Assembly (NCBI RefSeq): GCF_004010195.1
Contig: NC_057718.1
Span: 74,781,403 to 74,814,566, forward strand
Direction of reading: 5' to 3'
From: Chiloscyllium plagiosum
Lineage: Eukaryota
Length of the DNA: 33,164 nucleotides
The translations under genes and the position numbers were made by a program. The notes beneath the pieces are model-generated. The model ran no database searches, was not told where the DNA came from, and saw only the letters and a program-made list of their open reading frames with translations. Positions 4,779 to 32,507 of the stretch are shown piece after piece; position 1 is the first letter of the stretch; every line of letters begins with the position of its first letter.

Positions 4779-5292
4779 TAGAACATAGAACAAAGAACAT
4801 AGAACATTACATGGCAGTACAGGCCCTCGGCCCTGGATGTAGCACCAACCTGTGGAACCAATCTGAAGTCTTTCTCTCCTACATTATTCCATTTTCATCC
4901 ATATGTTTATCCAATGACCATTTAAATGCCCATAAAGTAGCAACTCTACCACAGTTGCAAGCAGTGCGTTCCACGCCCCTACTACCCTCTGAGTAAAGAA
5001 ACTGTCTCTGACATCTGTCCTATACTTATTACCCCTCAATTTATAACTATGTCCCCTCATGCTGGCCATTGCCATCCAAGGAAAAATGCTCTCAGTGTCC
5101 ACCCTATTAACACTCTGATTACCTTATATGTCTCAATTAAGTCACCTCTCAACCTTCTTCTCTGTAACAAAACTGCCTCAAGTCCCTCAGCCTTTCCTCA
5201 TAAGACCTTCCCTCCATACCAGGCAACATCCTAGTAAATCTCATTTGCACCCTTTCCAAAGTTTCCAAATCCTTCCTATAATGCGGTGATCA
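4779..5292 (-). mobile_element. CR1 LINE 3' end
   Basis: Minus ORF RGHSYKLRGNKYRTDVRDSFFTQRVVGAWNAL; (agaacat)n tail at left end. Confidence 0.92.
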
Positions 5293-5556
5293 TTTTGCCA
5301 GTTTTGATTTCACAACAGTTGGAGAAAGGATTCAACCACATTTTGATGCAAGGTATATGATTTATGTATAAGGTTTGCATCATTTATTTTGGATTTTGAA
5401 CTGGTGGCATGTGGGTTTTCGCAGCGTCTGATGATGTTTAGTAAATGAAGTTGTAAGTATTCCTGTAGCCAAGATAGATTTTCTTTAAAAAAAGCATTGT
5501 GAAAGAGTTCTTGGAAGCTAATGGGAACTTGTTTATATTGAGAGAGCTTTAGGAAT

Positions 5557-6280
5557 GGACAAAGTGAGGACTACAGATGCTGGAGATCAGTGTCAAAAAG
5601 TGTGACGGTTGAAAAGCACAGGTGGTCATGTAGTAACCAAGGGGCAGGAGAATTGACTTTTTGAGTATAAGCTCTTCATCTGGAATGAGGATTGAGACAG
5701 TGGGTCGACTGGGGCAGTCAGGTTTGTGAAATTTGAGTAGGAGGTTGAAACGGGCGGTACAGTATTCCCGGATTATGAGGTTGGAGGCTGTTGATGGGAG
5801 ATCCCCTGAGGTGATGAGGTTGTGGATGGTGTGGGAGATGCTGGTTTGGTGATGGGAGGTGAGGTCGTGGTCGAGGAGACAGTAGGAGGAGGTCCGCGAG
5901 TTTGCGCATGGCTTCAGCGATGTAGAGGTCGGTGTGCCAAACTACCACTGCATCCTCCTTGTCTGCTGGTTTGATGGTGACGTTGGGGTTGGAGTGGAAA
6001 GCGTTGGAGTGGGTGTTGCAATGCATATTGAATTAATTGATTCGGGAGCATAAAGGGATGAAGGTGAGGCCTTTACTGAGGACTGATCATTCATCCTCAG
6101 TGAGGGACAGGCCTTGGGGAATGGTAAAAACTGGCAGAACTGGGAGTCAGGACCTGATGTGGGGGCGGAGGCTGTGGGTGTGCTTATGGGATCATGGATG
6201 ATGTTACCAACAGAAGTGACCTCACCATGGGGGTCAGAGGTACAGAAGTGGTGCCTTCGGTAGCATTCGTGGGGGGGAAA
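5557..6280 (-). mobile_element. Penelope-like element fragment: RT N-terminal part joined to pLTR
   Basis: Minus strand NPNVTIKPADKEDAVVVWHTDLYIAEAMRKLAD and LLKFHKPDCPSRP; pLTR at 5557-5686 ends in ccagcatctgtagtcctcacttt. Confidence 0.85.
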
Positions 6281-7329: not shown

Positions 7330-8200
7330 AGCCTAAGTGGTACCTTCTGTAACAAAATGTCTAGGTAAGCTTTCCCCTTCCTGATGCATCTCAATGTCTG
7401 AAGCTTGACTCCTGCTCATCAGATTGGAACTTAATTCTTCAAGTTGTAGACCTTGGAGTACAGGTTCATAATTCCTTGAAAGTAGAGTCGCAGGTAGATA
7501 GGATAGTGAAGAAGGCATTTGGTGTGCTTTTCTTTATTGGCTAGCGTATTGAGTACAGGAGTTAGCGGCTGTACAGGACGTTGGTTAGGCCATTTCTGGA
7601 ATATTGTGTACAGTTCCAGTCTCCTTCCTATCAGAAGAATATTGTGAAAAATCAAAGGGTTCAGAAAAGACTTACAAGGATGTTGCCAGGATTGGAGGAT
7701 TTGAGCTACAGGGAGATGCCGAATAGGTTGGGACTATTTTCCCTGGAGTGTTGGAGACTGAATGTTGACCTTTTAGAGGTTTATAAAGTCATGAGGGGCA
7801 TGGATAGGATAAATAGACAAAGTCATTTCCCTGGGGTGGGAGAGTCCAGAACTAGAGGGCATAGGTTGAGGGTGAGAGGAGAAAGATATAAAAGGGACCT
7901 AAGGGGCACATTTTCATGCAGAGGGTTGTGCATGTATGGAATAAGCTGCCAGAGGAAGTAGTCGGAGCTGGTACAATTGCAGCATTTAAAGGCATCTAGA
8001 TAGGTTTATAAATAGGAATAGTTTAGAGGGATATGGGCCAAATGCTGACAAATGGGACTAGATTAGGTTAGGATATCTGGTGGGAATGGATGAATTGAAC
8101 TGTTTACAGGCTGTACATTTCTATGACTCTATTGCAGATATAGTTGCCATGGTTCACAGATATCCACCAGCTGCCACATGTCACTTGTTCTGTCATCCTT
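7330..8200 (-). mobile_element. Old CR1 ORF1 N-terminal fragment split by a younger CR1
   Basis: 8131-8200 gives MWQLVD...HGNYICN and 7330-7449 gives LQLEEL...EGES (frameshifted), the CR1 ORF1 zinc finger/coiled-coil pattern. Confidence 0.6.
7450..8130 (+). mobile_element. CR1 LINE 3' end (5'-truncated)
   Basis: LVRPFLEYCVQF...RVQKRLTRMLPGLEDLSYRE...RTRGHRLRVRGERY; ctatgactct tail. Confidence 0.92.
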
Positions 8201-9431
8201 ATTATATCTCATTCAAGTGATAGGGTTCAGCTGTCAAATATCACTCATCATGTATCCATAGCCAAATTACCTAGTTAAGCTATAGATCTAATTAAGCATT
8301 TTTTAATAATGGCATCTGCTGGCACCAGCACATGCGCCTTATGCACCACCTTAAATCACATGTGTGCAGACTTTGGGGGAATGCCAGGGGGGAGGAGGTT
8401 AGAACTGGGAGACGAAGAATGTGGACCCAGGAGAACATGAGGGGGGTAGGTTGGGTGAGAAAGAAAGAGAACCACAGTGGATTTGGAGTGAAGAGAGTTG
8501 AGTAAGCACAGAAGAAGGGAGACAGAGGAGGAAAGGGACTCCCAACTAATGGGTATTCATTACGTGCTCCCCCCATCCCATGTCCTGGGCCTCCCCTTGT
8601 TGCCCACTCACAACCCCTGTCTGCTGGCTCCTCTTCTCATTTTGGGGGATTCTGTACCCCCTGCTCTCTCCCCCCCACCCCCCACCCCCAAACTTGCAAT
8701 CCCCCCACCCCACCACTGAAACACCATTCAAAATCACACATTCTTTCCTGCACTTGCGCATGGTGTCACATAAAATCTACATGATGGACTATTGTGCTGG
8801 AACTGTACGCATGCATGTTCCCAAGTAAGAACACAGGCATAGTTACCTGCTGTCACCAGTCTAGGCAAATACTGCCTTTTTTTAATATGTCCCCAGTACC
8901 GGTGTAGAGAGGCAAAATAGCTTAAACACAACAACATTGTGACCTGATCTCCTAATTAATGTCTTTGAGCTTCAGTTCTCAGGTCTCACTCTTGCAACAA
9001 CCTTAATTGGCTGGTTCCTTCTTGCAAAAGACCAGAACAGCAGCTCTACTCTTAATGCACTGAATACCCTCACTTGCAAATTCTCAGAGTTAGTGGATTG
9101 TTCTTTGTGCACTCAGATAAAGCTGCACCTTTGCGTGATTTTACTTTGCGTGTTTACTAAAACTCTTGAATTGATTTTTGCTGAAATTCCAGCGAGCTGG
9201 TCAGTAACTATTGATCTGGAAACCAGTTCATACTTACTATGAAATTAAGTAACTGCTGCTGTCGTTAGCAGTTAATTTGTTTATCACTAACTAAGATTAT
9301 AGGAAACATAATTTACTGTTACACTTAAGCTTAACACTAAATGCAAACTTGATGAGATTTTAGATCAACTCTTAAAACTTCCTAAACAAATTCCCAAAGC
9401 TAATCATTTGGTCTCACTGGACTCAATTTCA

Positions 9432-9591
9432 TGCAACAGTGTGGTGCTGGAAAAGCACAGGTCAGGCAGCATCCGAGGAGCAGAAGAATCGATGATTCGT
9501 GCAAAAGCCCTTCATCAGGAATCCATTCCTGTGCTTTTCCAGCACCACACTCGACTCTAACCTCCAGCATCTGCAGTCCTCACTTTCGCCT
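9432..9591. mobile_element. Short fold-back Penelope pLTR element with 11-bp TSD
   Basis: TSD actcaatttca at 9421-9431 and 9592-9602; perfect 24-bp inverted arms 9438-9461 and 9528-9551; minus-strand cctgatgaagggcttttgcacgaatc. Confidence 0.85.
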
Positions 9592-9602
9592 ACTCAATTT
9601 CA

Positions 9603-10040
9603 AATCCTAGTCCTAGGCCTCCTCCACTGCCAAATCCAAGCCACCCAACAGCTGGAGGAAGAACACCTCATCTTCCACCTTGGCACCCTTCAACCACACG
9701 GCATTAACATCAACTTCACTAGTTTCCTAATTTCCCCTCCCCCCACCTCAACCCAGATCCAATCCTCTAACTAGGCACTGCCGTCTTGAACTGTCCTACC
9801 TGTCCATCTTCCCTCCTATCTATATACTCCACCCTCCCCTATTCAACCCCATTGCATCTGCCTATCTCCTTCTCAGCTATCTTTTTCCCCAATCCCCACT
9901 CCCACATTCCATTTTATCTCTTGCTCCCCCCCCCCCACCCCCACATTTCTGATGAAGGGCTTATGCCCAAAATGTTGACTCTCCTGCTCCTTGGAGGCTG
10001 CCTGACCTGCTGTGTTTTTCCAGCACCACACTGTTTGATT
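9603..10040 (+). mobile_element. Penelope-like element 3' end (GIY-YIG C-terminus + pLTR with hammerhead remnant)
   Basis: VLGLLHCQIQATQQLEEEHLIFHLGTLQPHGININFTSF, then a C-rich UTR and ctgatgaagggcttatgcccaaaatgttg at 9949. Confidence 0.88.
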
Positions 10041-10509
10041 CAATTTCTAACTGGCAGTCTTATGTGACTTGGCCATACAAGCTATTTGGATTCATTTGAA
10101 TTTCAAATGAAAAAGCTAATCTTAAATCCACTTAGTATTCTAAGATTTGTGCATGACCAAAGGCTCATTTTGAACCCAAAATTGGACTTTGGCCTTATTT
10201 CCACGTAACTTTTGTACTGCAGTGAACTGTTATACTTGAAGCTTTGCAATACTTGAGCACCCCTCAAGTAAATGAGGACATTTGGATAATTATGATTTTG
10301 ACTGATGATACACAATAAAATGTCAGTAGCTGGGATAACACAGTTCTGAGTATTTTTCTACTGGTTGTAGTTGACCACAAAAAGAAGCAGCAGGGGCATT
10401 TCACAATAAAGCTTATAGTATGATAAGAGAAACTGGATAAAAGAACAAGCTGTAACAAACAAGGAACAAAGAATGCAGACAAGGACAGCAGGATGGCCAG
10501 ATAAGAAAA

Positions 10510-10728
10510 TAACTAACAAGTGAGGTAATCGGCTTATGATAGGATGGGAAAAGGGAAGCATGATTCCGCAACTTGTAAACTGAATAAGAAAGCTAACAGG
10601 CTCTGTTTTGGTGCACATTTCTGCTTGATTGCAGAAGCCTCTGGTCCTGCAAGGCTGTAATAAATTGTTCTTGTTTCCAAGGCTTTGTCTCAGGCTGATT
10701 GATTTGTGAGTGAGTTCTGTTTCTCACA
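10510..10728 (+). repeat. ERV 5' LTR (part shared with the 3' LTR)
   Basis: Direct repeat of 18030-18249 with 4 substitutions and 1 indel; ends ttctcaCA; AATAAA at 10659-10664. Confidence 0.93.
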
Positions 10729-10731
10729 ATT

Positions 10732-10749
10732 TGGGGGCTCATCCGGAAT
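10732..10749 (+). promoter_or_regulatory. Primer binding site, tRNA-Pro
   Basis: TGGGGGCTCATCCGGAAT, 16/18 match to the tRNA-Pro PBS TGGGGGCTCGTCCGGGAT, 3 nt after the LTR end. Confidence 0.9.
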
Positions 10750-11168
10750 CCAAAACTCTGACCACTCAACACTCTTGGGACGATGGGGGAGGTGCACCTT
10801 GCCGATTTCGGTGATCTCCGACTCCCTTGCTTGTAGTTCATGATTTGGGCGAGTATGAACCGGATTGGGAGACCCTGGAAACAAGGTGGGCAGATGCGGC
10901 GGGTTCGGTCGGGCAACTCTTGTGCACAAAACCCAGGTAGGGAAAGGTCTTAAAGGATATATCCGGGTGCCAGGGGGCATCAGTATTTGCTGCAGGAATT
11001 GCCGCAGGACGGGGTGCACCGAAATGACCAGGTAACTCTGTGCACAGACCAAGGTAAGAAAAGAAACCTTCAGTATTGCCTTGGTGGTCGGGACGTACCT
11101 AAGTACGGGAAATTGGCAATATATAAAATAAAGCATATGTCAATGGAAAACAGCCCGTGTCAGAAGAG

Positions 11169-11276
11169 CTAGTAGCTGACCGGCTACTGAGGGTGCACTT
11201 CGTAACTAACTTATGGCCAGACATTCAGAAAAATATTCAAAACCTAGAGGAGTTGTTGCGGGAAGCTCAAAGTGTC
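11169..11276 (+). pseudogene. gag: Second, divergent gag capsid C-terminal fragment in the ERV leader
   Basis: LVADRLLRVHFVTNLWPDIQKNIQNLEELLREAQSV aligns to PIAQGLLKVQFVTKSWPDKQKKLQK...MEELLCEAQKV at 12538-12669. Confidence 0.8.
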
Positions 11277-11280
11277 TGTG

Positions 11281-11316
11281 AGACACACACGCACACACAC
11301 AGACACACACACAGAG
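11281..11316. repeat. Imperfect (CA)n microsatellite
   Basis: agacacacacgcacacacacagacacacacacagag. Confidence 0.85.
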
Positions 11317-11453
11317 AAAAGAGCTGTACAGCTAGTATAAAGTTTAACCCTTTGTGATTCGGTATGAATGCACATTTGTTTGTTGGTGATTGAATGTTAA
11401 CAGTTGAAGTCTCAAAAAGCATATAATTGGCCAGATTAATTAAATTTGCAATA

Positions 11454-12914
11454 ATGGGAGGCAAGGGGAGTTGCCTGTGTAACGATCGATCTGCAAATAA
11501 CGTTAAAGGGGGATATATCCTGCCCGACAGTCCTTTGGGGAAAGTGTTGGGTAATTGGGAACACAACTCCCGGACGCGGGAGAAAGATAAGGCTACAAAG
11601 ATAAACGATTGATGTTTTGTCTGGACTAGAGAAAGTATTAAGGTGCCTGGTATTTTTTGGCCCAAATATGGGTCAGATAAGAATTGGCTGTGTCAAGATC
11701 TTAATATATATGTCAATCGAAAAGAACCGTACAGTCAAAAAGAATCCGATTATGCGGCTTGTTGGATGGGAACCGTTGGAGTAAAATTATGTCCCATGAA
11801 TATGGAGGAATCAGGGGAAGAACAGAAAAAGAATGAACAAGGGAAGCCGCCCCCATATACTACTCCCCGGCACGAGCCTACAGCTCCCGAAGTAGAACTG
11901 AGTCCAGACACAGAAAAAGGAACGGACTCTGAACTAAAAGATGCAGAATCTAGTGGGCTCAGAATCACTCAAGCCACCACACGTAAAGGAGAGGCAGAGG
12001 TAATGGAAAATGTAAAATGATGTCCCTTACGAGAGGTTCCGATTGGGGAAGGTACAATCAGATATGTAAACGCTCCCTTAACTAGCAGTGAAGTTAGGGC
12101 CTTTAAAAAGGAAATGAAAAGTTTAATAGAGGATCCAGGTGGACTAGCCGAACAACTAGAGCAATTCCTAGGGCCTAATTTATATACCTGGGGAGAACTG
12201 ATGGCAATTTTAGGAACGTTATTTTCAGGGGAAGAACGAGGTATGATTAGGAGAGCGGCTTTATAGGAATGGGAAAAGAAGCACCCAGTTGGGGAAGAAG
12301 GGGCCCCAGCAGAACAGAAATGTTGACCCTCATTGGGAGAATAATGACAGAAGAGATAGGGAGTCAATGCGGGATCTATGAGAAATGGTAATATTAGGAA
12401 TTAAAGAGGCGGCACCTAGATCACAAAACTTTGTTAAGGCCTTTGAAGTACGACAAGAGAAGGATGAAACCCCTTCTGCATTTCTTAAAAGGCTCAAGGA
12501 GGCCACAAGGAAGTATTCGGGAATGGATTCCGATAATCCGATAGCACAGGGACTCTTAAAGGTCCAGTTTGTAACTAAATCATGGCCGGACAAACAAAAG
12601 AAATTACAGAAATTCAATGGATGGTGTGAAAGACAGATGGAAGAATTGTTATGTGAGGCACAGAAAGTGTGAAGCAGAAACAGAAAGCCAAAATGATGGT
12701 GGCGGCAGTAGAAGAAATAACAAAAAGGAGAATGGGATGAAGGGATAACAGAAAGGATAGGGGAAGACACGAAAGACAAGGGTCAGATACCCAGGAAAAG
12801 AGGCAACAGGCAGGGTGTTACCATTGCGGGAAAGTGGGGCATTTTAAACGGGAATGCCCGGAATTAGCACGAGAACGGGAAGCCGTTTCCCTAATGACCT
12901 TAGATGAAGATTAG
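11454..12914 (+). pseudogene. gag: ERV gag (MA-CA-NC), disrupted
   Basis: MGGKGS myristoylation-type start; PDSPLG, FWPKYGS, PLREVP, VNAPLTSSEVR, FLGPNLYTW, QEKDETP; one CCHC knuckle CYHCGKVGHFKREC at 12816-12857; TAG at 12912; internal stops and frameshifts. Confidence 0.92.
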
Positions 12915-12976
12915 GGGAGTCAGGGGTTCCTTCCTCCTGAGACCCACCGGGAACCCTTGATGAATTTAAAGGTGGG
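12912..12976 (+). promoter_or_regulatory. gag-pol UAG readthrough signal (predicted H-type pseudoknot)
   Basis: TAG in frame with pro, 8-nt spacer, stem 1 12923-12931/12949-12957, stem 2 CCCACC 12943-12948 with GGTGGG 12971-12976. Confidence 0.75.
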
Positions 12977-15900
12977 ACCTGAAGGGGAGGAGGCAGTATT
13001 TTTGGTGGACACGGCACGGTCATCCCTAAGTTTTAGACCTACCGGTGTTAAATTGACTAAGGAGTATGTTAAAGTTTCCGGAGTAAAAGGCGAAGAATTC
13101 TTGGTGCCTATTTTTGAACCAACCCTAATTAGAAGTGATGAGGAAGTGATAGGACAATTACTATATAGTCCTGACATTGGAAGTAATCTATTAGGTAGGG
13201 ATTTGATTATATTGCTGGGCTTAAAAATTGGGGTAGAGGATAGTGCAGTAACTGTAACGATGGCTATGTTAACACCTAGTGAAGAAAAACAAATCAGCCC
13301 TGACGTATGGGTGAAAGCGGATAACACAGGGCATCTAAATATTACTCCGTTGGTGATTACATTGACTCGAGAAGATGAGACAGTTCGGGTTAGACAATAC
13401 CCTGTATCGTTGGAAGGCAGTAGAGGTCTGCAACCAGTTATAGATTCTTTGGTAAAAACTGGACTGTTAGAACCATGTATGTCGCCCTTTAATACCCCAA
13501 TACTGCCCGTCCGCAAACCAGATGGAACCTTTCGATTGGTGCAGGATCTTAGGGCATTGAACTGATTGGTTCGAACACGACACCCGGTGGTACCTAATCC
13601 ATATACTTTGCTAGGCAAAATACCGTGTAACCACTGCTGGTTTAGTGTAATAGATTTAAAAGATGCATTCTGGGCTTGTCCTCTGGCCCCAGAAAGCCGC
13701 AACATGTTTGCTTTTGAATGGGAAAACCTATACACTGGTAGAAAACAGCAGTTCCGATGAACGGTACTTCCCCAGGGATTCACAGAATCACCTAATCTAT
13801 TCGGGCAAGTACTGGAACCGGTCCTGGACCAACATAAAATATCTCGGGGAACGTCATTGTTACAATATGTGGACGATTTACTTGTATCAGGACAAAAGAG
13901 ATGACATGAGTTTAGCCACCAATAGACTGTTAAATTTCCTAGGGCAACAGGGTTTAAGAGTATCTAGGAATAAATTGCAATATGTAGAGAAAGAGGTGAA
14001 ATACTTGGGACACCTTATTAGTGAGGGCACTAGGCGCATTAACCCTGAGAGAATTAAAGGGATCATTGAACTGCCCCTTCCGACCACCAAATGAGAATTA
14101 CGGAAGTTCTTGGGGCTGGTGGGCTATTGTAGATTATGGATAGAAGCATACGCCCAGAAAATGAAGGGGTTATATTACAAATTGACAGAATCTAAACATG
14201 AAAGACTGCACTGGACAGAAGAGGAAAAGGAAGGGTTACATGAGTTGAAGCACAGTCTAATACGAGCTCCGGTGTTGGCCCTTCCCTCCCTAGATAAATC
14301 ATTCCACCTTTTTGTGACAGTAAATAATGGAGCAGCCTTAGGAATGTTAACCCAGAAAGGAGAGGGAAAGAGACAGCCTATAGTCTTCCTGTCCAAGATC
14401 TTGGACCCTGTCTCGAGGGGATGGCCTGAATGTATACTGGCAGTAGCAGCCATTGCCATACTGGTAGAGGAAAGCCATAAACTTACTTTTGGAGGGGCGC
14501 TAGTCGTTAGTACCCCCCATCAAGTTAGAACTGTGTTAAACCAAACGGCAGGGAGATGGTTAACAGACTCACGAATCTTAAAATACGAAACCATCCTGAT
14601 GGAGAGAGATGACCTAGTGTTAGCGACAGACACCAGTCTAAATCCAGCTACCTTCCTATGGAAGGGAGAACCTCTAGACAAATGAGAATTAGAACATGAC
14701 TGCCTGGATATCATAGAATATCAAACCAAAGTTAGACAGGACCTAAAGGATATCCCCTTACATGACGGGGACAGACTGCTTATAGGCGGGTCATCAAGAG
14801 TAGTACAAGGAAAAAGACACAATGGAGATGCAGTAGTGGACGGTAACGAGAATCGAACGGTTGAGGCTGACCGGTTGCCTAACACATGGTCAGCCCAGAC
14901 TTGTGAGTTGTATGCATTAAACCAAGCTTTAAAACAATTAGAGAATCGAGATGGGACAATTTACACCGACTGTAAGTATGCCTATGGGGTGGTACATACC
15001 TTCGGAAAAATATGGCAAGAACGTGGACTAATCAACAGCCGGGGAAAGGAATTGATACACGAAGAGTTGATAGGACAAGTGTTGAAAAATTTGGAATTAC
15101 CCCAGGAAATAGCCACAGTCCATGTACCTGGGCACCAGAAGGGGAACACTCTAGAAGCAAGAGGGATAGGCTAGCAGACGAGGCAGCTAAAGAGGCAGCT
15201 ATAAGCCACACAGTAACAAAAATACGGGTTCTCACACCCATAGTGGAGTCCCCTTCCGTGAACCCCATGTACACGGAAGAAGAGGAAAAGGAATTCCAGG
15301 AAATGGGGGCCACTAAGACAACCCAAGGAAGATGGATCTTCTCGGATTGAAGGGAGTTATTAAGTAAACCAGTTATGAGAAACATCCTAACCACCTTGCA
15401 TTAAGGCAGTCACTGGGGATCCCAAGCTATGTGTGACATAGTGTTAAGGAAATACGGATGTAAAGGGATATACACATTAGCCAAGCAGGTATGCGCAGGA
15501 TGCCGACTTGCCAAAAGATTAATAAGAAAGTAACAAGAGGGGGGCCAGGAGGTGGAAGAAACCCTGGGGTAAGACCTTTTTAAAGAATACAGGTAGATTA
15601 CACAGAATTAATCCCAGTAGGGAAACAAAAGTACTTATTAGTCCTAATGGACCACCTAACTGGGTGGGTGGAGGCATTTCCAATGTCCTCAGCTACTTCA
15701 AAGGGAGTAGTGAAAACTCTTTTAGAACATATAATTCCTTGATATGGAGTGGTGGAAAGTATAGATTCAGACCAAGGTAGCTATTTTACCTCTAAGATCC
15801 TACAAGAAGTAAGGGCGGGATTAGAGATCTCTTGGGAATTCCACACTCCTTGGCACCCGCCTTCCTCTGGACGGTGGAACGAATGAATCAAACCTTAAAG

Positions 15901-16418
15901 AAGCAATTGTCTAAGCTAGTCCTAGAGACTCGATTACCATGGACAAAATGTTTACCTATCGTGTTGCTACACATTAGGACTGCACCTAGACATGATATAG
16001 GCCTCTCTCCTTATGAGATGATGTTTGGATTACCTTTCTTGGGTGGAAGATGGGAATTACCAACTGTAGAGTTCAATGATAAGTTTTTAAAGAACTATTG
16101 TGGCGCTCGGCTCTTCTTTGGAAGAAGGGTCTGTTGACTCAGACACCTCCACTTGAGTTCGCAGTACATCGGATACGACCGTGTGATTGGGTCCTGATAA
16201 AGACCTGGAAAGATACCAAACTGCACCCAAGCTGGGAGGGACCGTTCCTAACCCTCCTGACTACTGAAACAGCCATCCGAACTGCTGAAAAAGGGTGGAG
16301 TCATCACACTCGTGTTAAGGGCCCGGTGGACACTCCTTCCCCTCCGGCAGAGTGGCAAGCACATCCCACAGACAACCCTCTGAAAATCAAGCTGAGCAAA
16401 AAGAATGGACTGAGATAA
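12915..16418 (+). pseudogene. pol: ERV pro-pol (PR, RT, tether, RNase H, integrase), disrupted
   Basis: FLVDT and NLLGRDL; QYP, SPFNTPILPV, VQDLRALN, DLKDAF, LPQGF, YVDD at 13866-13877; SAQTCEL, IYTD; IQVDYTE, IDSDQG, VERMNQTLK, WEGPF; many stops and frameshifts. Confidence 0.95.
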
Positions 16419-16540
16419 GAGACTATTAAGTATTGGTTAAAAAAAAACTGTATCCCAAAACAATTGTAAGTGTTGCATGGGTTCACTCCTCCCTGGTATT
16501 TAAAGGGTTAGGGAATAGACAGATAGGGTTGTGAGCTGAA

Positions 16541-17873
16541 ATGAATGGTCAGCTTTATGTTGTCATGATAATATTGGCGCTAGCTGCCAAGGGGGGGGAT
16601 GGGAAAAATCATTTTACTGCTTTATGTCAGAATTGTGCTAAACTAAAGGGGCATACTGACTGTTGGGTATGTGCTGAGATCCCACACCATGGGGAATCCG
16701 GAATTCCTCTCACGGTAATACCACTTACCAAAGAAGAAGTGTACGATGTACAACAATTTGACTCAGGCTCAAATGATACAACTTGGAGATTTGAAAGGGG
16801 TAATTATAACTTTGTGGGATGGTTCCCTCAACCAGCCCCAAAAACTCTGGGTGCTATCGATGGCCTTAGAGTTTCCCCCCGAAAGGAGCAGTAAATACCA
16901 CTTGTTTCTGTAATCAGAATGATACAGCACCTTTCTGATTAGGAAAATCATCTTGTGTCTACACCAGCCAAACCACTGCCACGACCATTCCCCAAATATT
17001 AAACGGAACATATTGGGTATGCGGCCTGAAGGCCTATCTATTTATTCCTGGGGAGAAATACATTCGCGTGACTGAATGTATAGGAATGCATGCATGTTAT
17101 GATGTTGATCAAACACTGCCTCAAAGCCAGAAAGGCTGGAGTGGCTGCTGCTACCTCGCCTATATAATTCCCCACTTCAGGCTGTTAAAGAGAGCCCCAA
17201 AATTACCTTGGAATAAATAGGGAGGAAAGCGAGTAACCCGGAAAGTAACCGAAGGAGATCGCCTCCTCTGGACTTTGATACCTATGTATTGGACCGCTCA
17301 AGCAGGAGTAGAAATACAAAAGTTGGTGGCTTCCCTGGAAGAGTTGGCCAACAATACTGCTATGCGTTGGCCGAAACCCAATCCCAAGTAGCAGCCATAA
17401 CGACCGAAATGATTGCCATTAGGCTAACGACCCTTCAGAACAGGATGGGTCTGGATAATGTTCTAGCAGAGAAGGGTGGTATCTGTGCACTAATTGGAGA
17501 GGAATGTTGTACGTACATACCTGAGGTCTCCTCTAACATTACTGATATCTCCAAACATGTGCGAGACAAAATTGCCAAGATAAGGAAGGCCGGTAATCGG
17601 TTCCAGAATGAAAAAGGATGGGAATGGGGCAATTGGGGATTGACTGGTTGGGGAAGGTGGCTAGTCAATCTAGCTATCTATGGATTATTGATATTAGTGG
17701 GTCTGGTGGTAGGGTTCAATGTCCTAAAATGGGTAATGAGCCGACTGATGACATCCCTTGAGGAAGGAACCCAAATAAATCATCAGATGCTTTTACAATC
17801 AGCAGGTGATATGCAACAAAGAGAAAGTCAAAGAATGCATCAAAGGGACGAACAACTCAAATGTAAAATGTAA
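16541..17873 (+). pseudogene. env: ERV env, gamma-type, disrupted
   Basis: Signal peptide; CWVC at 16661-16672; RVTR cleavage site ~17230-17241; ISD LQNRMGLDNVLAEKGG; CX6CC CALIGEECC at 17484-17510; TM LVNLAIYGLLILVGLVVGF; about 2 frameshifts and 2 stops. Confidence 0.92.
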
Positions 17874-17965
17874 GATTGTGAACCTCATCGCCAAAAGGCA
17901 TAAGAGGGCAGAACATAAAAAAAAAAATAAATAAAGGAGAATTAATAAGTGCAAAAACAACAGTT

Positions 17966-17987
17966 AGAGAAAAAGAATAAGAGGGAA
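17966..17987 (+). promoter_or_regulatory. Polypurine tract
   Basis: agagaaaaagaataagagggaa just before the presumed 3' LTR start. Confidence 0.7.
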
Positions 17988-17988
17988 T

Positions 17989-18249
17989 TATGGGAGATTA
18001 GAAATGTTGTTGTTGCAGGTGGGGGAGGGTAACTAACAAGTGAGGTAATCAGCTTATGATAGGATGGGAAAAGGGAGGCATGATTCCGCAACTTGTAAAC
18101 TGAATAAGAAAGCTAACAGGCTCTGTTTTGGTGCACATTTCTGCTTGATTGCAGAAGCGTCTGGTCCTTGCAAGGCTGTATTAAATTGTTCTTGTTTCCA
18201 AGGCTTTGTCTCAGGCTGATTGATTTGTGAGTGAGTTCTGTTTCTCACA
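17989..18249 (+). repeat. ERV 3' LTR
   Basis: 18030-18249 repeats 10510-10728; start inferred from the PPT (tatggg, degenerate TG); ATTAAA at 18180-18185; ends in CA. Confidence 0.88.
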
Positions 18250-18817
18250 GTGGCCAGGAGAGCAGTCCTGTTCCTTCCAGCTCCACATCCAGTTCGATAT
18301 GTGAATGTTCCAGATGATTGTATTGTACGCATAGTGAATAACATGGCAAGAGTATTCTAAAATTAAAACTGGATTGTGCAAGTATTCTCTGAGTGCACCT
18401 ATTTTATTATAATTAGGCTTACCGCTCAAATCTTTCCAGGGTTAGTATTCTGAATGTTGGCTTAGCACAACTGACACACCCAACGTCTGCTTTGCTCAAA
18501 ACCAGAAAATGTAGTGTTATGTATCTTGAGCTCTTTTTTTAAAAAAGAAGGGTGGACTCTCCTCTCCAAAAATTTAAACAGGAGGGATCACATATTTTTC
18601 CTTTTTGGAATAAACTAGAATGGAAATTAGACATTATGATGTAGCAAAAATATGAGAAGAGTTTTGCAATTTGAAAAATCAAGTGGTGCACATCTTTAGC
18701 TGTAAAAGACTATATTGCTTTTGGATCAGTGAGATTGCCACTTTATTCAGTTAAAGCAGCACCCGAGGTTTTTGAGATAGGGAAAAACCCTTGGACTAGT
18801 AATGCTGCAGTTATCTA

Positions 18818-19235
18818 GAGACTTAGCATATGTACAGTACAGAAACAGACCTTTGGTTCAACCCGTCCATACCAACCAGATATCCGATCCCAACCTAATC
18901 CCATCTGCCAGCACCCTGCCCATCTCACTCCAAACACTTCCTATTCATACATCCATACAAATGCCTTTTAAATTTTGCACTTGTACTAGCCTCCACCACT
19001 TCCCTAGCAGCCCATTCCACACACACGCACCACTCTCTGTGTGAAAAAGATCCTACATAAGTCTCTTTTATATCTTTCCCCTCTCACTCTAAACCTTCCT
19101 GATGAAGGGCTTTTGCCCAAATCGTTGATTTTCCTGCTCCTTAGATGCAGCCTGACCTACTGTGCTTTTCCAGCGCTACTCTAATCTTTACTCTAAAACT
19201 GTGCCCTCTAGTCTTGTACTCCCCCATTCCAGCGA
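18818..19235 (-). mobile_element. CR1 LINE 3' end, interrupted by a 93-bp pLTR piece
   Basis: cagaaacagacctttggttcaacc 3' UTR; cactctctgtgtgaaaaa (FFTQRVV); tgccctctagt (TRGH). Confidence 0.85.
19097..19189 (+). mobile_element. Penelope pLTR piece starting at a hammerhead remnant
   Basis: tcctgatgaagggcttttgcccaaatcgttg...; flanked by actctaaacct (19086-19096) and actctaaaact (19190-19200). Confidence 0.8.
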
Positions 19236-19486: not shown

Positions 19487-20602
19487 GATTATTCTTCTGA
19501 ATTTACACAACAATCCCAATAAGCAAACCCCCTTTAAAAAAAACAGTAAAAATTGAACAATTGCTTACAGGTTGAAGTCAGAAGGGTAGAAGGAGAGAGA
19601 GTTTCACAGACTGTTTCCACACAGTTGAACTCCTAACTAGTTCTGAATTGAACTGCTCAGCAAGAGAGCTGACCACTCCCCTTTCATTATACAGATTACT
19701 TTTAAAACATGACCACTTTCGCCTGAAGTCTCATCTGTTTATCTGTAAACAAAAGGCTCTCAACATCCTTTATCATCCCTGTACCAAATTAGTCACCCTG
19801 GAGTTGGAAGGGTTTTATGCCTCCTCTGAAAAAATAACAAGGACACAGTATTGTTGTGGGGAAAAACACCAGTCTCGGAGTCAGAATTGAATTTCAATGA
19901 CACAAGGAAATACCGGAGCTCCGGGGAGAGAAAGACACCGACAGCACAGTTGTTAACTGCAAGTCTTCTCTTGACCCAGAGCACATGTCAAGAAACTTTT
20001 ATACATCTTGTGATACAATAGGTCAGTGATGAGATTATTGTCTTTGTAACATGGTTTGTTTATGGCAATCATTGCAGAACCATTGATAGATTCAATGCAG
20101 TCTTTGTCAGTTCCAGCACAACCTTTGTTAATTTTCGCGTGGTCATTGTCAGTTTCAGTGCAGACATTGTCAGTTTCAATGTCTGCATGGAAATCTATGG
20201 GCGCTAATCACTCTTCCTGAGAAGGATGATTACTGCAGCCCTGGCTATTAGCATTTCGTATTGTATATGTATCAAACTGTTAGCATTTCTATAAGAGGTG
20301 TTGGCTGGACCCTGGCAGTGTTTGTTGCTAATGTGTATTCTCTCTTGCCTTAAACTAATCAGCTGGGTTGTGAGTGCATTGTGCTGGCATTCTGGTGGCC
20401 CCAAGTAGTGTCTGTATCTGCTCTACTGTTTCTATCCATATTGTGATCCAGTGGCCATCTTGTGTATCAAGTTGGGCAACTAATAGCTCAGTGGCCATCT
20501 TGTGTGTCCATGTGCCTAGTATCATCCTGCCCCATGGCATCTCCCTCATCAGTATCCTTGAGAAAAGGCACCGCTTTTAGAAACAAGGGATCAGCTTTGA
20601 TA
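19487..20602 (-). repeat. Gmr1-like 3' LTR (truncated, interrupted by a solo LTR)
   Basis: Homologous to ~24520-24916 (gaactcctaactagttctg, gcctgaagtctcatctgttta); PPT cctccccccttt at 20603-20614 adjacent. Confidence 0.85.
19852..20551 (-). mobile_element. Solo LTR of an unrelated family
   Basis: TG...CA ends with imperfect inverted termini tgttgtggg/ccctcatca; 4-bp TSD GTAT at 19848-19851 and 20552-20555; minus-strand TATAAAA near 20000. Confidence 0.85.
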
Positions 20603-20799
20603 CCTCCCCCCTTTAAAAAATGAACTATCAATATCAAAAGATGACTTTACTTTTAAAACCCCGCAAAAACACACTGGTTAGTAGTCTAAAACACATATAT
20701 ACACCATAGCAATGGTACACATGCAAAAATGCACAACCACATGCAAATTCAGGCCATGGCACATCTGCCACTGAATGCCTCTGTATCTCAGTTGAGTCC

Positions 20800-22900
20800 C
20801 GATAACGCATCGGCGATCATATTTTCCTTTTTTGTCCTTAAATTTTTCTACAAATGTCAATGGGTTATGAACAGTGTACACGATTGTCTCTGATGCATTG
20901 CTGGTAATATAAACACTGAAATGTCGTAATGCCAACACCAAGCTCAAAGTCTCTTTCTCCACCATTGAATATTTTGGTTAATGAACATTCAACTTCCTGG
21001 AAAAATACCCAATAGATCTTTCTATTCCCTGGTCATCCTCCTGCAGGACCACCCCACATCACTGGCATCGAATGCAACCTTGAAAGGCTTCATGTAATCC
21101 AGGGTGGCTAATACTGAGGAAATGGTTAACACAGTTTTTTGGCTGTCAAATGCCTTTTGACAGTCCGCTGTCCACTGAAACTTCTTGCCCTTTTGTTTTT
21201 AAAAATTCGGTGAGTGGAGCAGCCACATTGCTAAAGTTTGGCACAAGCTTTTAGTAAAATCCATTCCACCCCAGGAACTGTAGTACTGCTTTATTTGTCG
21301 ATGGTGTGGGAAATTCCCCAATACTTTCATTTTCACATCCCGTGGGGTCATTTGTCCATGTCCAATAACATGGCCCAGGAAGGCGACTTGGGCTTTGAAC
21401 ATTCACTTTTAGCTAGGTTTACCACCAAGCCTGCCTTGCAAAGTCAATTGAACAAATCCGATAAATGCTGTAAATATTCCTTCCATGAATGACTAAAAAC
21501 CACCAGGTCATCAATGTAAACAACATAATTGGGTAACCCAGCAATGACCTTATTTAGTCAGTCTCTGAAATGTGGCTGGAGTGTTTTTCATGCCAAATGG
21601 CATGACTTTGAACTGATATAGTCCATTTAGCATTACAAAAGCTGAAATTGCCTTTGCTCTCTCTGACAGATGTACTTGCCAGTAGTCTCTGAGCAAGTGC
21701 AGCTTAGAAATGTAAATTGCTTGTCCCACCTTTTTGACACAGTCCTCCAACCGTGGAATTGGATATGCATCAGTTTTTGTAACTGCGTAGACTTTGCGAT
21801 AGTCCACACATAACTATTGGGTACCATATGGCTTTCACTGTGATGCTGCATAATAGGATGGCCTCTGGAAATCTAGTCGACATGTTCATTATTGTTAATA
21901 AATACTCATTCCCACTTTTTGTTTGAGGTAGGGGACTTACGCAATCAATCAAGACTCTTATGAAAGGTTCTTCAAATGCTGCATTAAAGGTGCAGGTTTT
22001 ATTGCTGCCTGTGGTTTTCCAATTAGCTGACATGTATGACACCCTCACAAAATTCAATGGCATCCTTGTGTAGTCCAGGCCAGTAAAAATGTCTTTGTAT
22101 TTAAGTCTGCATTTTTCTCACCTCTATATGACCTCCAAGTGGTAGCTCCATGCGCCACTCGCAGCAACTCCTTTCTGTATTGTACTGGCAATACAGAACT
22201 TCTGCCCATTTCTTATTCACTTGAATGTGTGATGGTCTCCATTTCCTCATTATGACATCATTTGTTAAGTGATAACAACATGGATACATTCATTATCCTC
22301 TGAGTATGCCTTTTGATACAATGGTTTTTACTTCTCATCTTTCTGCTGTAACTCAATCAGCTTAGCAGAGCTAAAGAAACTTGTTTACCTATTTGCTCCT
22401 GTTCTGTCCCACTTATCTGATCAAAAAAGTCCCTGATAAAGCTATGTCAGCTTCCTTATCTGTGCCTTTTGATCTCTCCTGGTTCAACTTGTGCATCTGT
22501 GATCTTGTGATCACACAATCTGGGAAAATTTCTGGATAAACTAGAGTAGGCAGCATACCTACCAGTGAATTAGTGATATCCTTTGCAAGGACAAATTGTA
22601 TTCCTGGAGCTGAGAGTTTGTCCAATACTCCTACTACAAATTCTCCGCTCTTCTCTGGATTCTCGAGCCTCACTTTACATAATTGAGCACTTTTTGTTTC
22701 ACCATGAATTTCTGTTACCTTTTCTGGCAAGTGTCCCTCAGGAGTATATATCTCCTGATCCTTCAGCATTGCAGACTGAAAGGATCCTGTGTAATCTCTT
22801 CATCTGCTACTCCTGGCCTATGTGAATAAACTTTACCCTTGCATGTATACTTTTTAAGCAGATCTGGCACTTCCTCCTTAACCAACCTCTGATCATCTTG
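20800..22900 (-). pseudogene. pol: Gmr1-like pol (PR-IN-RT-RH)
   Basis: GGH...FYWPGLHKD zinc finger; EEPFIRVLIDCVSPLPQTKSGNEYLLTIM; CVDYRKV, YPIPRLED, MPFGMKN, YIDD at 21507-21518; DASDVG, VEKETLSLVLAL. Confidence 0.9.
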
Positions 22901-22979
22901 TACACTCTGAGGCAGTTACTTAACTTCCTTTATGCTTTTTGTTACTAGGCCAACAAAACTCCCAGGCTTGTCTGGTTTC

Positions 22980-24195
22980 CCTACATATAGCTTTCTCCTA
23001 GCCCACTAATATTGTGATTTCATGTGGCTCACTGTATTACAAATGAAAACAGCAGAGCTTTTTAACTTCTTTGTCCCTATCGAGGGTTTCTTTTTTACCC
23101 TGTGGTAAGTTATACTTATGCTCTTCACTGAGATCTATCTTTCCCTTTCAACGTGAGGATTTCTCTTTGCCCCAATTTTTGTCCCTCATGGACTGAAATT
23201 GATTCTGGAATCCAAACCGTGTTTTACAGATCAGCTCATAATCATCAGCCACTTCAGCTGCCAACCTTGCCATTTTAACTCTCTGCTCTTCCACATGAGT
23301 TTGCACTACTTCAGGCAGTGAATGTTTGAATTCTTCCAAAGTAATTACCTCTCTAAGGGCATCATAGGTTTGTTCGATTTTTTTAAAGGTGTTATTCATC
23401 TATCAAAATTACTCTGTTTGATCCTTTCAAACTCAATGGAGGTTTGACCTGGGTCTCTGCTTAGATTCCTGAAATGTTGTCTATAGGCTTCTGATACAAG
23501 CTCATATGCACTTAAAATGGCTTTTTTCACCTCCTCATACACTCCTGATACCTCCTCTGACAGTGATGCGAATACCTCACGAGCCCTACCTACAAGTTTC
23601 ATTTGGATCAACAAAATCCACATTGCCACTGGTCACTGCATTTGTTTAGCCACCTTTTCAAATGCAATGAAAAAGGCTTTCACATCCTTCTCAAATTTAG
23701 GCAGTGCTTGGACATTAAACAGTTTTTCACTAGGCTTTTGACTACCAGGGGCTTGCTCCAGGTAGTCTCTTTCTCACTAAGCCTACCTTCAGCCTTTATC
23801 TCCAGCCTTTTACACTGACTTTCCTTTTTAAGTGTCAGTTTATGAAGTTCAAAAGCTCTCTCTTTTTCTTTCTCTCCTGCTGCTCTCTTTTTCCCTCTCT
23901 TCTGCTTTTAATCGCAACTCAAACTGTTTCATTTCTGCTGCCCTTTCCTTACCTCTCGCCTCTAATTCAAGCTGCTTCATTTGCAATTGAATTCTTGCCA
24001 TCTCTATAGATTCTGATGGTTTCTCCAGCAAGTTTACATGCTGAGGTACTGCTGTAATTATCTCTCCTTTCCTCACAGAAGCAAGCAGGTCCAATCCCAG
24101 CTGGTCTGCTAATTCCTGCAGCTTGGTCTTATTCATCTTTTGCAAAATTTCCAAAGTCATCGCATCCACTTCCTATTTGCGATTGAAAGAGCCAT
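22980..24195 (-). pseudogene. gag: Gmr1-like gag with SCAN-like capsid domain
   Basis: Coiled coil, then FFIAFEKVAKQMQ, KLVGRAREVF, YEEVKKAILSAYELVSEAYRQHFR, LREVITLEEFKHSLPEVV, AAEVADDY; decayed CFH knuckle. Confidence 0.88.
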
Positions 24196-24283
24196 TACTA
24201 TCCCAAGCTTTGTCTATCCAACCAAACCAACATCCAAAATAAAGACACTAGCACCTACCACTCATTGTTTAAAATCTCATAAA

Positions 24284-24292
24284 GAGCCTCCA
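24284..24292 (-). promoter_or_regulatory. Partial PBS (tRNA-Pro-like) of the Gmr1-like element
   Basis: Minus strand TGGAGGCTC, 3 nt inside the LTR end. Confidence 0.55.
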
Positions 24293-24295
24293 ATC

Positions 24296-24916
24296 TGTTA
24301 TGGACTAGGGCAGAGCACTTAAAACATTCTTAAGCAGGCAGTCCAGACCATAACTTTGCAATTTGTTTCAGTAAGTGTACAGTGAAAATTACCCGGAGTA
24401 AGTTAGCTAGGTTGACTACCAGATTTTAAAACAAAAAAAATTCACAAAATTACACAATGAAACACAAAGAACAGGATAAAGAACCCATACAGAACTCAGT
24501 CTATCCAAATTAGACTTAATAATGTTGTTCCAATTACACCCAGCAGTCCCAAAAAACAACCCCACCCCCTTAAAAAACAGTAAAAATGGAACAAATCCTT
24601 GCAGGTTGAAGTTAGAAGGGCAGAAGAGAGAGAGTGTTCCACAGCCTGTTTCCACACAGCTGAACTCCTAACTAGTTCTGGACTGAACTGCTCCCTTTTC
24701 ATTATACAGATCACTTCTAAAACATGACCATTTTGGCCTGAAGTCTCATCTGTTTACATATAAACAAAAGGCCTCTTAACATCCTTTGTCATCTCTGTAC
24801 CAAACTAATCACCTCGGAGCCAAGAGGGTTTTATGACCCCTCTGAAAACAAACCAAGGACTCAGTATCCTTGGGAAAAGGAACAGCTTTTAGAAAAAAGG
24901 AACCAGCTTTGTGACA
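24296..24916 (-). repeat. Gmr1-like 5' LTR
   Basis: tgttat...gtgaca TG/CA termini, 621 bp, adjacent to the PBS, homologous to the left LTR. Confidence 0.88.
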
Positions 24917-26801: not shown

Positions 26802-27113
26802 GGGGCGGCACGGTGGCTCAGTGGTTAGCACTGCTGCCTCACAGCGCCAGGGACCTGGGTTCAATTCCTGCCTCAGGCGACTGTCTGTGTGGAGTTTGCA
26901 CATTCTCTTCGTGTCTGTGTGGGTTTCCTCTGGGTGCTCCGGTTTTCTCCCACAGTCCAATGATGTGCAGGTTCGGTGAATTGGCCATGCTAAATTGCCC
27001 ATAGTGTTAGGTGCATTAGTCAGGGTGGGTTGCTCTCCGGAGGGTTGGGTGGACTTGTTGGGCTGAAGGGCCTGTTTCCACATTGTAGGGAATCTAATCT
27101 AATCTAAAAAAAA
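26802..27113 (+). mobile_element. HE1/V-SINE, near full length
   Basis: A box TGGCTCAGTGG at 26814, B box GGTTCAATTCC at 26858, central gtgggtttcctctgggtgctccggttt, (aatct)3 plus A tail. Confidence 0.93.
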
Positions 27114-27164: not shown

Positions 27165-27508
27165 ATTTGTTGTTGTGGTTCTGTTCGCCGAGTTGGGAAT
27201 TTGTGTTGCAGACGTTTCATCCCCTATCTAGGTGACATCCTCAGTGCTTGGGAGCCTCCTGTGAAGCGTTTCTGTGATGATTCCTCCGGCATTTATAATG
27301 GTTTGAATCTGCCGCTTCCGGTTGTCAGTTCCAGCTGTCCGTTGCAGTGGTCGGTATATTGGGTCTAGGTTGATGTGCTTATTGATTGAATCTGTGAATG
27401 AGTGCCATGCCTCTAGGAATTCCCTGGCTGTTCCCTGTTTGGCTTGTCCTATAATAGTAGTGTTGTCCCAGTCAAATTCATGTTGCTTGTCATTTGACTG
27501 GGACAACA
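27165..27508 (-). mobile_element. Penelope-like element 3' end (third family; GIY-YIG C-terminus + pLTR)
   Basis: HEFDWDNTTIIGQAKQGTAREFLEAWHSFTDSINKHINLDPIY. Confidence 0.88.
27208..27247 (-). ncRNA. Minimal type I hammerhead ribozyme motif
   Basis: gca-CTGAGGA-tgtcacctagataggggat-GAAAC-GTC-tgc: both core boxes, stem II, palindromic ACGT stem III and GUC site. Confidence 0.7.
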
Positions 27509-27855
27509 GTCTCTCAAATGCCTCTTAAATGTTGCAATTGTATCAGCCTCCACCACTTCCTCATGCAGCTCAAATTTGGATGTGATACTGCTTTCACAGT
27601 ATTTTTGCTATTATTTTACTCAAAGAGAAAAAGAACACTGCTTTCAAAGCAACCTTAGTGAGTTGCTACAGTACAGCCTGGAGGCTATACTTGCTGCATC
27701 AAAAGAATAGAGGGTTTGATGTTTAATTCATTTGTTGGAGTATTAACCAGATGAGACTCTCTGCCATCCTGAATGCTATTGAACTTCTTTACTATTGTAA
27801 ACAAAGAATAGTACAGCACAGAAACAGGCCCTTTGGCCCACCCACCCTTTATATT

Positions 27856-31091: not shown

Positions 31092-31197
31092 ACCAGGTTC
31101 TCGCTTGCCAGTGTCAGATACTTGATTTTGGAACTCCCTACTCTCATCCTTTTCTTTGTACCTGTCCTATAATTTTGGTTCCCATCCACCTGCTGCA

Positions 31198-31793
31198 TTA
31201 GTTTAAATCCACCTTAATAGCTTTAGCGAATTTCCCACCCAGGATATTGGTACCCCTCTGGATTAGATGAAGACCATCCTGCTTGTAGAGGTCGCTCCTA
31301 CTCCAGAAAGAGCTCCAATTATCCAAAAACCCAAAACCCTCCCTCCTGCACCATCCCTGTAGCCACGTGTTCAACTCCTTTCTCTCCCTGTTCCTCACCT
31401 CACTAGCATGTGGCACGGGCAGCAAACCAGAGAAAACAACTCTGTTTGTCCTAGCTCTAAGCTTCCATCCTAGCTCCCTGAATTTCTGCCTCAAGTCCCC
31501 ATTTCTCTTCCGACCTATGTCGTTGGTGCCAATGTGGGCCATGACTTGGGGCTGTTCTCCCTCCCCTCGAAGGATCCCAAAAACACTATCAGAGACATCA
31601 TGGACCCTGGAACCCAGGAGGCAACACACTAACCCTGAGTCTCTCTCGTCCCCACAGAACCTCCTATCTGTCCCCCTAATTATCGAGTCCCCAATGACTA
31701 CTGCTCTGCTCCTCTTCCCCCTTCCCTTCTGAGCAGCAGGTGCCCCACTGCTTTCCCCTGGTAAGTCATCCCCCCAACAGTATCCAAAACGGT
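31198..31793 (-). pseudogene. CR1 ORF1 SGNH/GDSL esterase domain, open but 5'-truncated
   Basis: VVIGDSIIRG, HIGTNDI, DGLHL blocks. Confidence 0.88.
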
Positions 31794-32507
31794 TGTAAAC
31801 TTCCATCAGGTTAGCATTTCAGTCTCCAATTTTCAAGTAAAAATGACAAACCAAGCTTATCCACTCTCTTCTCAAACTGAATACCCTCCAAACCAGGCAA
31901 CATCCTAGTAAAGTTTTTCTGTGCCTTGTCCAAAGCTTCCACATTCTTGTGATAGTATGATAACCAGAACAGTATGCAATATTCCAAATGTGTCCTAATA
32001 AAAGTTCTCTACAACTGCAAAATGATTTACCAATTTTTATACTCTATGATCTGAATGGTGTAGGCAAGCATGCCATATGCTTTCTTGATAATCTAAACCA
32101 CTTGGGTTGCCACTTCCAAGTGTCTGTGGACCTGTGCACCGAGATCCCTCTATGTTAATGCTTCTAAGGGTTTTGGCATTTACAGTGTACTTTCTTCATG
32201 CATCAGACCTTCCATAATGTGCACCTTGCATTCCTCTGGGTTTTCTCTGTCCAATTCTCCAGCCTATGTATATCCTGCTGTAACCTCTGGCGATTCTCCT
32301 CATTTTCCGCAGCTCCCCCAATTTTTGTGTCACCCTCAAACTTACTAATCAGATCATCTACATTCTTCTCCAAATCGGTTATATATATTACAGAAAACAG
32401 GGTTCCTAACTCTGATCCCTGTGGAATATAAATTTGTAATATATAAATATGTCATGCATATTTTCATAGCCTGTCTTGAGCCTTACAGATGATTAAAAAT
32501 CTTTGAA

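Follow-up and report, generated by a model that had tools for sequence, protein, structure and literature searches.

A defective HERV-I-related endogenous retrovirus with a gamma-type envelope in the carpet shark Chiloscyllium plagiosum

Organization and coding decay of the provirus

The window that we analyzed is a stretch of 33,164 nucleotides from Chiloscyllium plagiosum. We are highly confident that the segment from 10510 to 18249 on its + strand is a defective endogenous retrovirus (ERV) of class I that belongs to the RT clade of HERV-IP and HERV-ADP (the “HERV-I-related” elements) and is fixed in the carpet-shark genome. Its parts follow one another in the order LTR, tRNA-Pro PBS, gag, an in-frame TAG, pro-pol, env, polypurine tract (PPT), and LTR (Table 1). 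The PBS begins three bases past the first LTR copy, and gag ends in a TAG at 12912-12914 that is in frame with the protease. A Pfam scan gave matches for eight of 12 pieces: Gag_p30 (E 1e-16) and one zf-CCHC (2e-7) in gag; RVT_1 (4e-17), RNase_H (5e-14), MLVIN_C (6e-10), and, weakly, Integrase_H2C2 (0.004) in pol; and TLV_coat (9e-13) in env. No accessory open reading frames were seen in the provirus, no tRNA genes were found, and 11100-33164 gave no Rfam matches. An earlier note on this DNA, written from the sequence alone, had listed all retroviral parts in order, with a tRNA-Pro PBS, a single CCHC, YVDD, and a gamma-type env, and each of these was recovered through the repeat, the PBS table, Pfam, and the motifs. 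Its description of the provirus as near-complete is apt for the layout and not for the genes, every one of which is broken.

Table 1. Features of the provirus, with positions in the window
Feature	Position	Strand	Basis or remarks
5' LTR, part common to the 3' LTR (3' U3-R-U5)	10510..10728	+	Direct repeat; AATAAA at 10659; ends in CA
PBS, tRNA-Pro	10732..10749	+	Identical to the P (Pro, AGG) entry of the PBS table (Vargiu 2016, supplement 6)
Diverged relic of a capsid C-terminus, in the leader upstream of gag	11160..11276	+	Resemblance to the element's own capsid end
gag (MA, CA, single CCHC at 12816-12857)	11454..12914	+	Pfam; frame comparison with relatives
pro-pol: protease, RT (YVDD at 13866-13877), RNase H, integrase with MLV-type C-terminal domain	12915..16418	+	
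Gamma-type env: short SU, CWVC at 16661-16672, R-x-x-R, ISD, CX6CC, membrane anchor, tail	16541..17873	+	
Polypurine tract	17966..17987	+	Purine runs at 17966-17977 and 17979-17987
3' LTR	17989..18249	+	Start inferred from the PPT; 18030-18249 common to the 5' LTR

Comparison with unbroken relatives divided the coding region into 12 frame segments, with about nine frame changes and 15 in-frame stops. Five stops and two frame changes fall in gag (one of these stops lies near a frame change), eight stops and about five frame changes in pro-pol, and two of each in env; active-site motifs of protease and RNase H are also altered. Judged from its sequence, the locus is coding-dead and can yield no intact protein today.

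The layout, the PBS, the in-frame TAG, the motifs, and the position in the RT tree are observed directly. The gammaretroviruses (MLV and its kin) have the same genome plan, a Pro PBS, an in-frame gag stop, a single CCHC, and a gamma-type env, and by analogy with their biology the ancestor would have been a simple gamma-like retrovirus primed by tRNA-Pro. Read-through of the TAG that ends gag would have produced its Gag-Pol, and its env would have been expressed from spliced RNA. The product of env would have been a gamma-type fusion protein with a disulfide between SU and TM, fusion being triggered by isomerization of the CxxC/CX6CC disulfide. A plain fold, which cannot represent pseudoknots, of the region in which a read-through pseudoknot might lie was no better than shuffled sequences (168 of 200 as good, z 1.01). 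Two candidate stems after the gag TAG are visible by eye and are unproven.

The long terminal repeats and the leader

The direct repeat (10510-10728 and 18030-18249) is 98% identical, with two transitions, two transversions, and one indel over 219 columns. Upstream of these shared 219 nucleotides the 5' parts of U3 are unrelated and give no alignment between the two LTRs; in particular, nothing at the 5' end corresponds to the first 41 or so nucleotides that follow the PPT. The true start of the 5' LTR may therefore lie upstream of 10510, at about 10414 or further. Nor did we find a target-site duplication: no 4-, 5-, or 6-mer within 9801-10510 matches the 3' flank exactly. Thus, the locus shows neither the two full, matching LTRs nor the 4-6 bp duplication of an intact single integration, and the limit of the provirus that the earlier note had set at 10510 marks a genuine repeat and not a boundary common to both LTRs. 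A candidate duplication at 10493-10500, matching the 3' flank at seven of eight positions, was rejected; it does not adjoin the start of the shared LTR part, and a match this good has a chance of about 5% over 130 offsets.

The leader holds a further irregularity. Its capsid relic has 22 of 39 aligned residues in common with the capsid end of the element itself, with an alignment score of 90 that none of 1000 shuffles reached (best, 46). Also, the 15 stops imply 4.3%-5.5% substitution and hence 14-24 differences between the LTRs, whereas four are observed (P 0.0014 or less under all five rate models, which assume today's CpG content and thereby underestimate the CpG targets of the past). Together, the U3 mismatch, the missing target-site duplication, the capsid relic, and the excess of stops suggest that two proviruses were joined into a mosaic, that the LTRs underwent gene conversion, or that an already damaged genome was copied.

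Alternatively, this could be an ordinary single integration of which one LTR, or the sequence beside it, later lost a segment, with the stop excess due to CpG decay or chance. We regard this as a serious possibility, if a somewhat doubtful one. TGA accounts for 11 of the 15 stops and the CpG observed/expected ratio is 0.46-0.50, as CpG decay would have it; the one LTR indel agrees with about nine frame changes in 6.2 kb; and the shared LTR part is as similar as stated above. Against these points stand the shortfall in LTR differences and the leader relic, which a single integration leaves without explanation. Lost CpGs weaken the argument from the stops, and the indel counts do not conflict with the LTR divergence. 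We do not rely on an LTR date (K2P 0.0185, or about 42 My at the rate of 2.2e-10 assumed by Han), because it rests on four substitutions and the LTRs may not share one integration.

Affiliation of gag and pol

The earlier note had called the element HERV-I-related and had named RT falling outside the HERV-I-related clade as the outcome that would speak against this. In an RT tree of 71 rows with HERV-IP/ADP, gamma, and epsilon references, the provirus lay inside a clade of 48 rows (support 100/99) that also holds the HERV-ADP-like protein P0159, the HERV-IP-like proteins P0172 and P0202, all eight elasmobranch rows, snakes, and birds. All eight gamma and all four epsilon references lay outside it. 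Within the clade the branching forms a polytomy in which no nearest sister is singled out. The rows comprised the provirus, 55 hand-picked proteins (56 were picked from about 260 Pol matches, and P0182 was left out because of its gaps), and 15 of 24 IMG/VR retrovirus loci, the identities of these loci being presumed. The HERV references are database proteins assigned by eye to published consensus text rather than named records; hand counts put the identity of P0159 with the HERVADP consensus at about 91% and that of P0172 with the HERVIP consensus at about 87%.

In an AU test on 26 rows, a grouping of the provirus with the gamma references was rejected (p 4.6e-6), as was one with the epsilon references (p 0.013, with long branches in play), while a single elasmobranch clade was not (p 0.217). 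By this test the provirus lacks both the RT monophyly with MLV-related viruses that marks the genus Gammaretrovirus and that with WDSV-related viruses that marks Epsilonretrovirus and clade Mu. RT identity of the provirus is 66% to P0159, 58%-59% to P0172 and P0202, and 65%-74% to named elasmobranch proteins, compared with 44%-48% to the gamma references; the best match among solved RTs is that of MMLV (E 5e-50).

These values bear on the idea that the element might instead be a fish ERV of epsilon-like (clade Mu) type, comparable to CmiERV II/III of the elephant shark, with convergent motifs. Published accounts lend the idea some plausibility: elephant shark is described as having only SnRV-like and epsilon-like ERVs (Han 2015, PMC4422223), and the gamma-containing clade Jin is said to infect amniotes only (Xu 2018, PMC6001957). 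RT identity to the epsilon references is, however, only 36%-42%, compared with 58%-74% to the HERV-IP/ADP clade, and the AU test and the apparent lack of accessory frames point the same way. The epsilon-like reading is largely refuted, and we give it almost no credence. Indeed, provided that Jin as defined by Xu includes HERV-IP, the provirus argues against the restriction to amniotes as worded.

Membership in the HERV-IP/ADP clade is also apparent from comparison with the consensus proteins (Vargiu 2016, supplement 3), to which both Gag and RT can be matched. Gag and RT are closer to HERVADP than to HERVIP: by hand count, 122 of 168 RT core residues (about 73%) match the HERVADP consensus and 115 of 168 (68%) that of HERVIP, and 62 of 88 residues of the capsid N-terminus are identical to HERVADP. 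Within the record parts of about 400 letters in that supplement, both DLKDAFW and NAPLT turn up in HERVIP and HERVADP and nowhere else (two occurrences of each), and GRKQQ is confined to HERVADP; FVTKSWPD, a later motif, gave no match within these record parts. The Gag motifs that the earlier note had given for the group (PDSPLG, FWPKxGS, VNAPLTSSEVR, and FVTKSWPD) are present in the window, and the provirus thus has DSPLG, FWPKxGS, and VNAPLT of the supergroup HERVIPADP. It also has the single zinc finger, the in-frame gag-pro junction, and the A content above 31% of that supergroup (internal A content is 32.7%, compared with 31.1% in HERVIP and 32.8% in HERVADP). The usual PBS of HERVIPADP is for tRNA-Pro or -Ile, which the tRNA-Pro PBS of the provirus fits.

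In its Gag and Pol motifs, A-richness, single zinc finger, and RT clade the provirus is therefore like HERV-ADP (HERVP71A) and HERV-IP (HERVIP10F) as these are described for HERVIPADP (PMC4724089); the hosts and the LTRs differ. The “HERVI” of Vargiu 2016, assigned there to supergroup HERVERI, is distinct from HERVIP and HERVADP (PMC4724089), and it is with the latter two that the provirus belongs. Vargiu 2016 also likens HERVIPADP to avian ChiRV1 (PMC4724089). ChiRV1/avigamma1 of birds is, by published description, a full-length non-mammalian relative of HERVIPADP that contains stops (PMC4724089, PMC3482500, PMC4133949). Bird Pol proteins share the RT clade of the provirus, though their host class differs.

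The envelope and the spread of the lineage

The env gene carries CWVC at about residue 40, together with an R-x-x-R site, an ISD of the LQNR type (LQNRM), and CX6CC, and with its membrane anchor it has the features by which a gamma-type Env is recognized (CxxC in SU, ISD, CX6CC, and membrane anchor; PMC9967133). In seven of seven gamma reference envs, CxxC lies instead at residues 236-354. A search with TM found one protein among 429 candidates, C. plagiosum XP_043563399, to which all three env segments are 79%-85% identical, and an exhaustive search with XP_043563399 found 1012 relatives. XP_043563399 and the S. tigrinum protein XP_059503658 are env ORFs that lack a membrane anchor. Organism names were obtained for 15 of 20 relatives looked up among the best 150 of the 1012, and all were fishes except for one frog; the named hosts are Stegostoma, Chiloscyllium, Carcharodon, Pristis, Hemitrygon, Scyliorhinus, sturgeon, teleosts, and the frog. 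In a TM tree of 38 rows, none of them a HERV-IP env and with a bootstrap that had not settled, env grouped with Chiloscyllium (100/93), then Stegostoma (99/97), and then Carcharodon (95/89). This order is that of the known shark relationships. The closeness to Chiloscyllium and Stegostoma proteins bears out the earlier note's suggestion of a shark genome.

In the HERVIP env the ISD is of the WENRIAL type and SU is long (PMC4724089), in contrast to the LQNRM-type ISD, short SU, and early CxxC of the provirus. The WENRIAL ISD and YNQQR of the HERVIP/EnvP(b)1 type are absent from the provirus, and YNQQ occurs in one of 150 env relatives. Env thus appears to derive from an anamniote env lineage and not from that of HERV-IP/ADP, a difference that the earlier note had missed. 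Since env is not of the HERVIP/EnvP(b)1 type, we would count the provirus as a member of the HERV-IP/ADP Pol clade and not of the human HERVIP/HERVADP group in the strict sense. Because the placements of RT and env are incongruent, we infer that the clade has exchanged envelopes. Of five bird pol-env proteins two could be placed, both with envs other than that of the provirus.

Compared with PDB sequences, SU gave nothing below E 0.1, and no solved env matched in sequence. A model of P0241, a natural C. plagiosum relative (pLDDT 71), had as its best match syncytin-2 (7oix_A; Z 7.6, rmsd 4.6, 94 aligned), followed at ranks 2-7 by filovirus GP (GP1; Z 4.8-5.6); Foldseek gave no match with an E value of up to 0.001. 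An N-terminal CxxC is present in syncytin-2 as well (PMC9967133), and an SU plan of this kind is therefore already known.

How did such an element come to be in a shark? Among the best 120 of 305 and the best 120 of 871 Pol matches, most named matches came from birds, and further ones from snakes, lizards, and elasmobranchs (at least one and at least five, respectively, among the matches listed). The predominance of birds, together with the view that the lemon-shark element arose by cross-transmission (per Han 2015, PMC4422223), would accord with a recent cross-class jump that took the element from an amniote to a single shark species, or with amniote contamination. Yet annotations of related Pol exist for Scyliorhinus, Hypanus, Hemitrygon, Rhinoraja, and Amblyraja (the last as a cluster member), env follows shark relationships, and the bird dominance reflects one over-annotated swallow genome, so that a recent jump or contamination is very unlikely.

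A more far-reaching scenario is that elasmobranchs (sharks, skates, and stingrays) harbor an old and diverse radiation of HERV-IP/ADP elements, its env tracking shark speciation, and that the members in birds, snakes, and primates, human HERV-ADP and HERV-IP among them, descend from it through changes of host and of envelope. We consider this marine source unlikely, and give it some weight because the AU test did not reject elasmobranch monophyly, the base of the clade is a polytomy, and env branches in the order Chiloscyllium-Stegostoma-Carcharodon. If true, it would overturn the amniotes-only statement for clade Jin.

The lineage has long been known in sharks from one fragment, and the provirus supplies its anatomy from end to end. 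That fragment, the lemon-shark sequence of Herniou in 1998, is reportedly a product of pro-pol PCR, and HERV-I-related viruses are said to have been the subject of work by Martin in 1997. Described as close to a human ERV (Herniou 1998, cited in Han 2015, PMC4422223), it is a single sequence from a requiem shark and lacks LTR, gag, and env, all of which the provirus has. Elsewhere, 2018 clade I RT loci are reported from six chondrichthyan genomes (PMC11089739).

The earlier note had raised the prospect that a cartilaginous-fish member with full structure was undescribed, which is probably not so. By their main text, Chen et al. (bioRxiv 10.1101/2021.11.23.469661) extended ERVs with gamma-type env to full length in six cartilaginous fish; reported gamma-related ERVs with typical gammaretrovirus structure, including the lineages ERV-GA.a-Cpu and ERV-GA.a-Ara; placed consensus genomes in S4 Data; and described 46 orthologous ERV groups in Chiloscyllium. 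Cpu and Ara, to go by the names, would be C. punctatum and Amblyraja radiata. Likened by description only, these two lineages share with the provirus a gamma-related class I Pol, a gamma-type env, a simple-retrovirus layout, and coverage of Chiloscyllium. “HERV” occurs nowhere in the preprint text, whose main part makes no connection to HERV-IP/ADP. Our literature search, which did not extend to Dfam or Repbase and does not show absence from print, turned up no publication in which a full-length HERV-I-related provirus of sharks goes by that name, and the available text of PMC10435555, PMC9323773, PMC5753468, PMC4977317, PMC10536682, PMC3482500, and PMC4133949 mentions no shark member of the HERV-IP/ADP clade. 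The family is quite possibly catalogued already under another name.

For specialists the provirus holds little surprise, the lineage being known across vertebrates, full-length gamma-related ERVs having been catalogued in Chiloscyllium, and the copy being dead. Its interest lies in tying gamma-related elasmobranch ERVs to HERV-IP/ADP, with an envelope unlike that of the human members, and for paleovirology in what it adds on the range of hosts of class I ERVs and on their exchange of envelopes.

Finally, we note the outcome of several wider searches. An LTR motif scan of metagenome contigs gave five loci, none of them real (no match to the stretch beyond the motif); tblastn against plasmids gave one unrelated match; and a degenerate RT pattern found no viral contigs. 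Among the sequencing runs that contain part of 9000-18900, no RNA run was listed. These runs number 20, of which 14 (three organisms, five studies) cover a share of 0.30-0.37 and none reaches 0.5; flanking repeats make up about one-fifth of the query.

Envelope relatives of the provirus

The two closest relatives of the gamma-type Env encoded by the provirus are database proteins that are both annotated as "syncytin-1-like", one from Chiloscyllium plagiosum itself (XP_043563399, 371 aa) and the other from Stegostoma tigrinum (XP_059503658, 367 aa). The open reading frames (ORFs) of both have a start methionine and stop just short of the membrane anchor, and the two proteins could be either soluble, co-opted envelopes or merely decayed copies.

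Other mobile elements in the window

Additional repeats and element remnants are collected in the table.

Repeats and mobile-element remnants in the window
Feature	Position	Strand	Content
tRNA-derived SINE, two copies	1426-1608; 26803-27087
Short repeats, both orientations	5549-6032; 9425-10046; 19093-19182; 27228-27524; 28898-29082		ORF pieces
CR1-like LINE	28481-31818	-	GDSL esterase ORF1, endonuclease, RT
CR1-like LINE, additional 3' fragments	near 4940-5292 and 7566-8100
Coiled-coil ORF, start only	32698-33164	+	L1/Tx1-type ORF1 likeness, by eye
Capsid C-terminal relic, then CA microsatellite	11160-11315		Within proviral leader
Decayed Gypsy LTR retrotransposon	19520-24870	-	LTRs, SCAN, RT, RNase H

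The two SINE copies, which agree at 93% over 98 nt, are presumably similar to the elasmobranch HE1 SINE. By their appearance, the ORF pieces among the short repeats may be Penelope-type RT and endonuclease remnants; Pfam gave no match for the two pieces that were scanned. The Pfam matches of the coiled-coil ORF were weak and were to coiled coils only.

The Gypsy element

The LTRs of the Gypsy element are approximately 340 nt long and have a column identity of 87%. A piece at 21770-22117, integrase-like by eye and for which Pfam returned no match, is located before the RT, and integrase before RT is the domain order of Gmr1-type elements.
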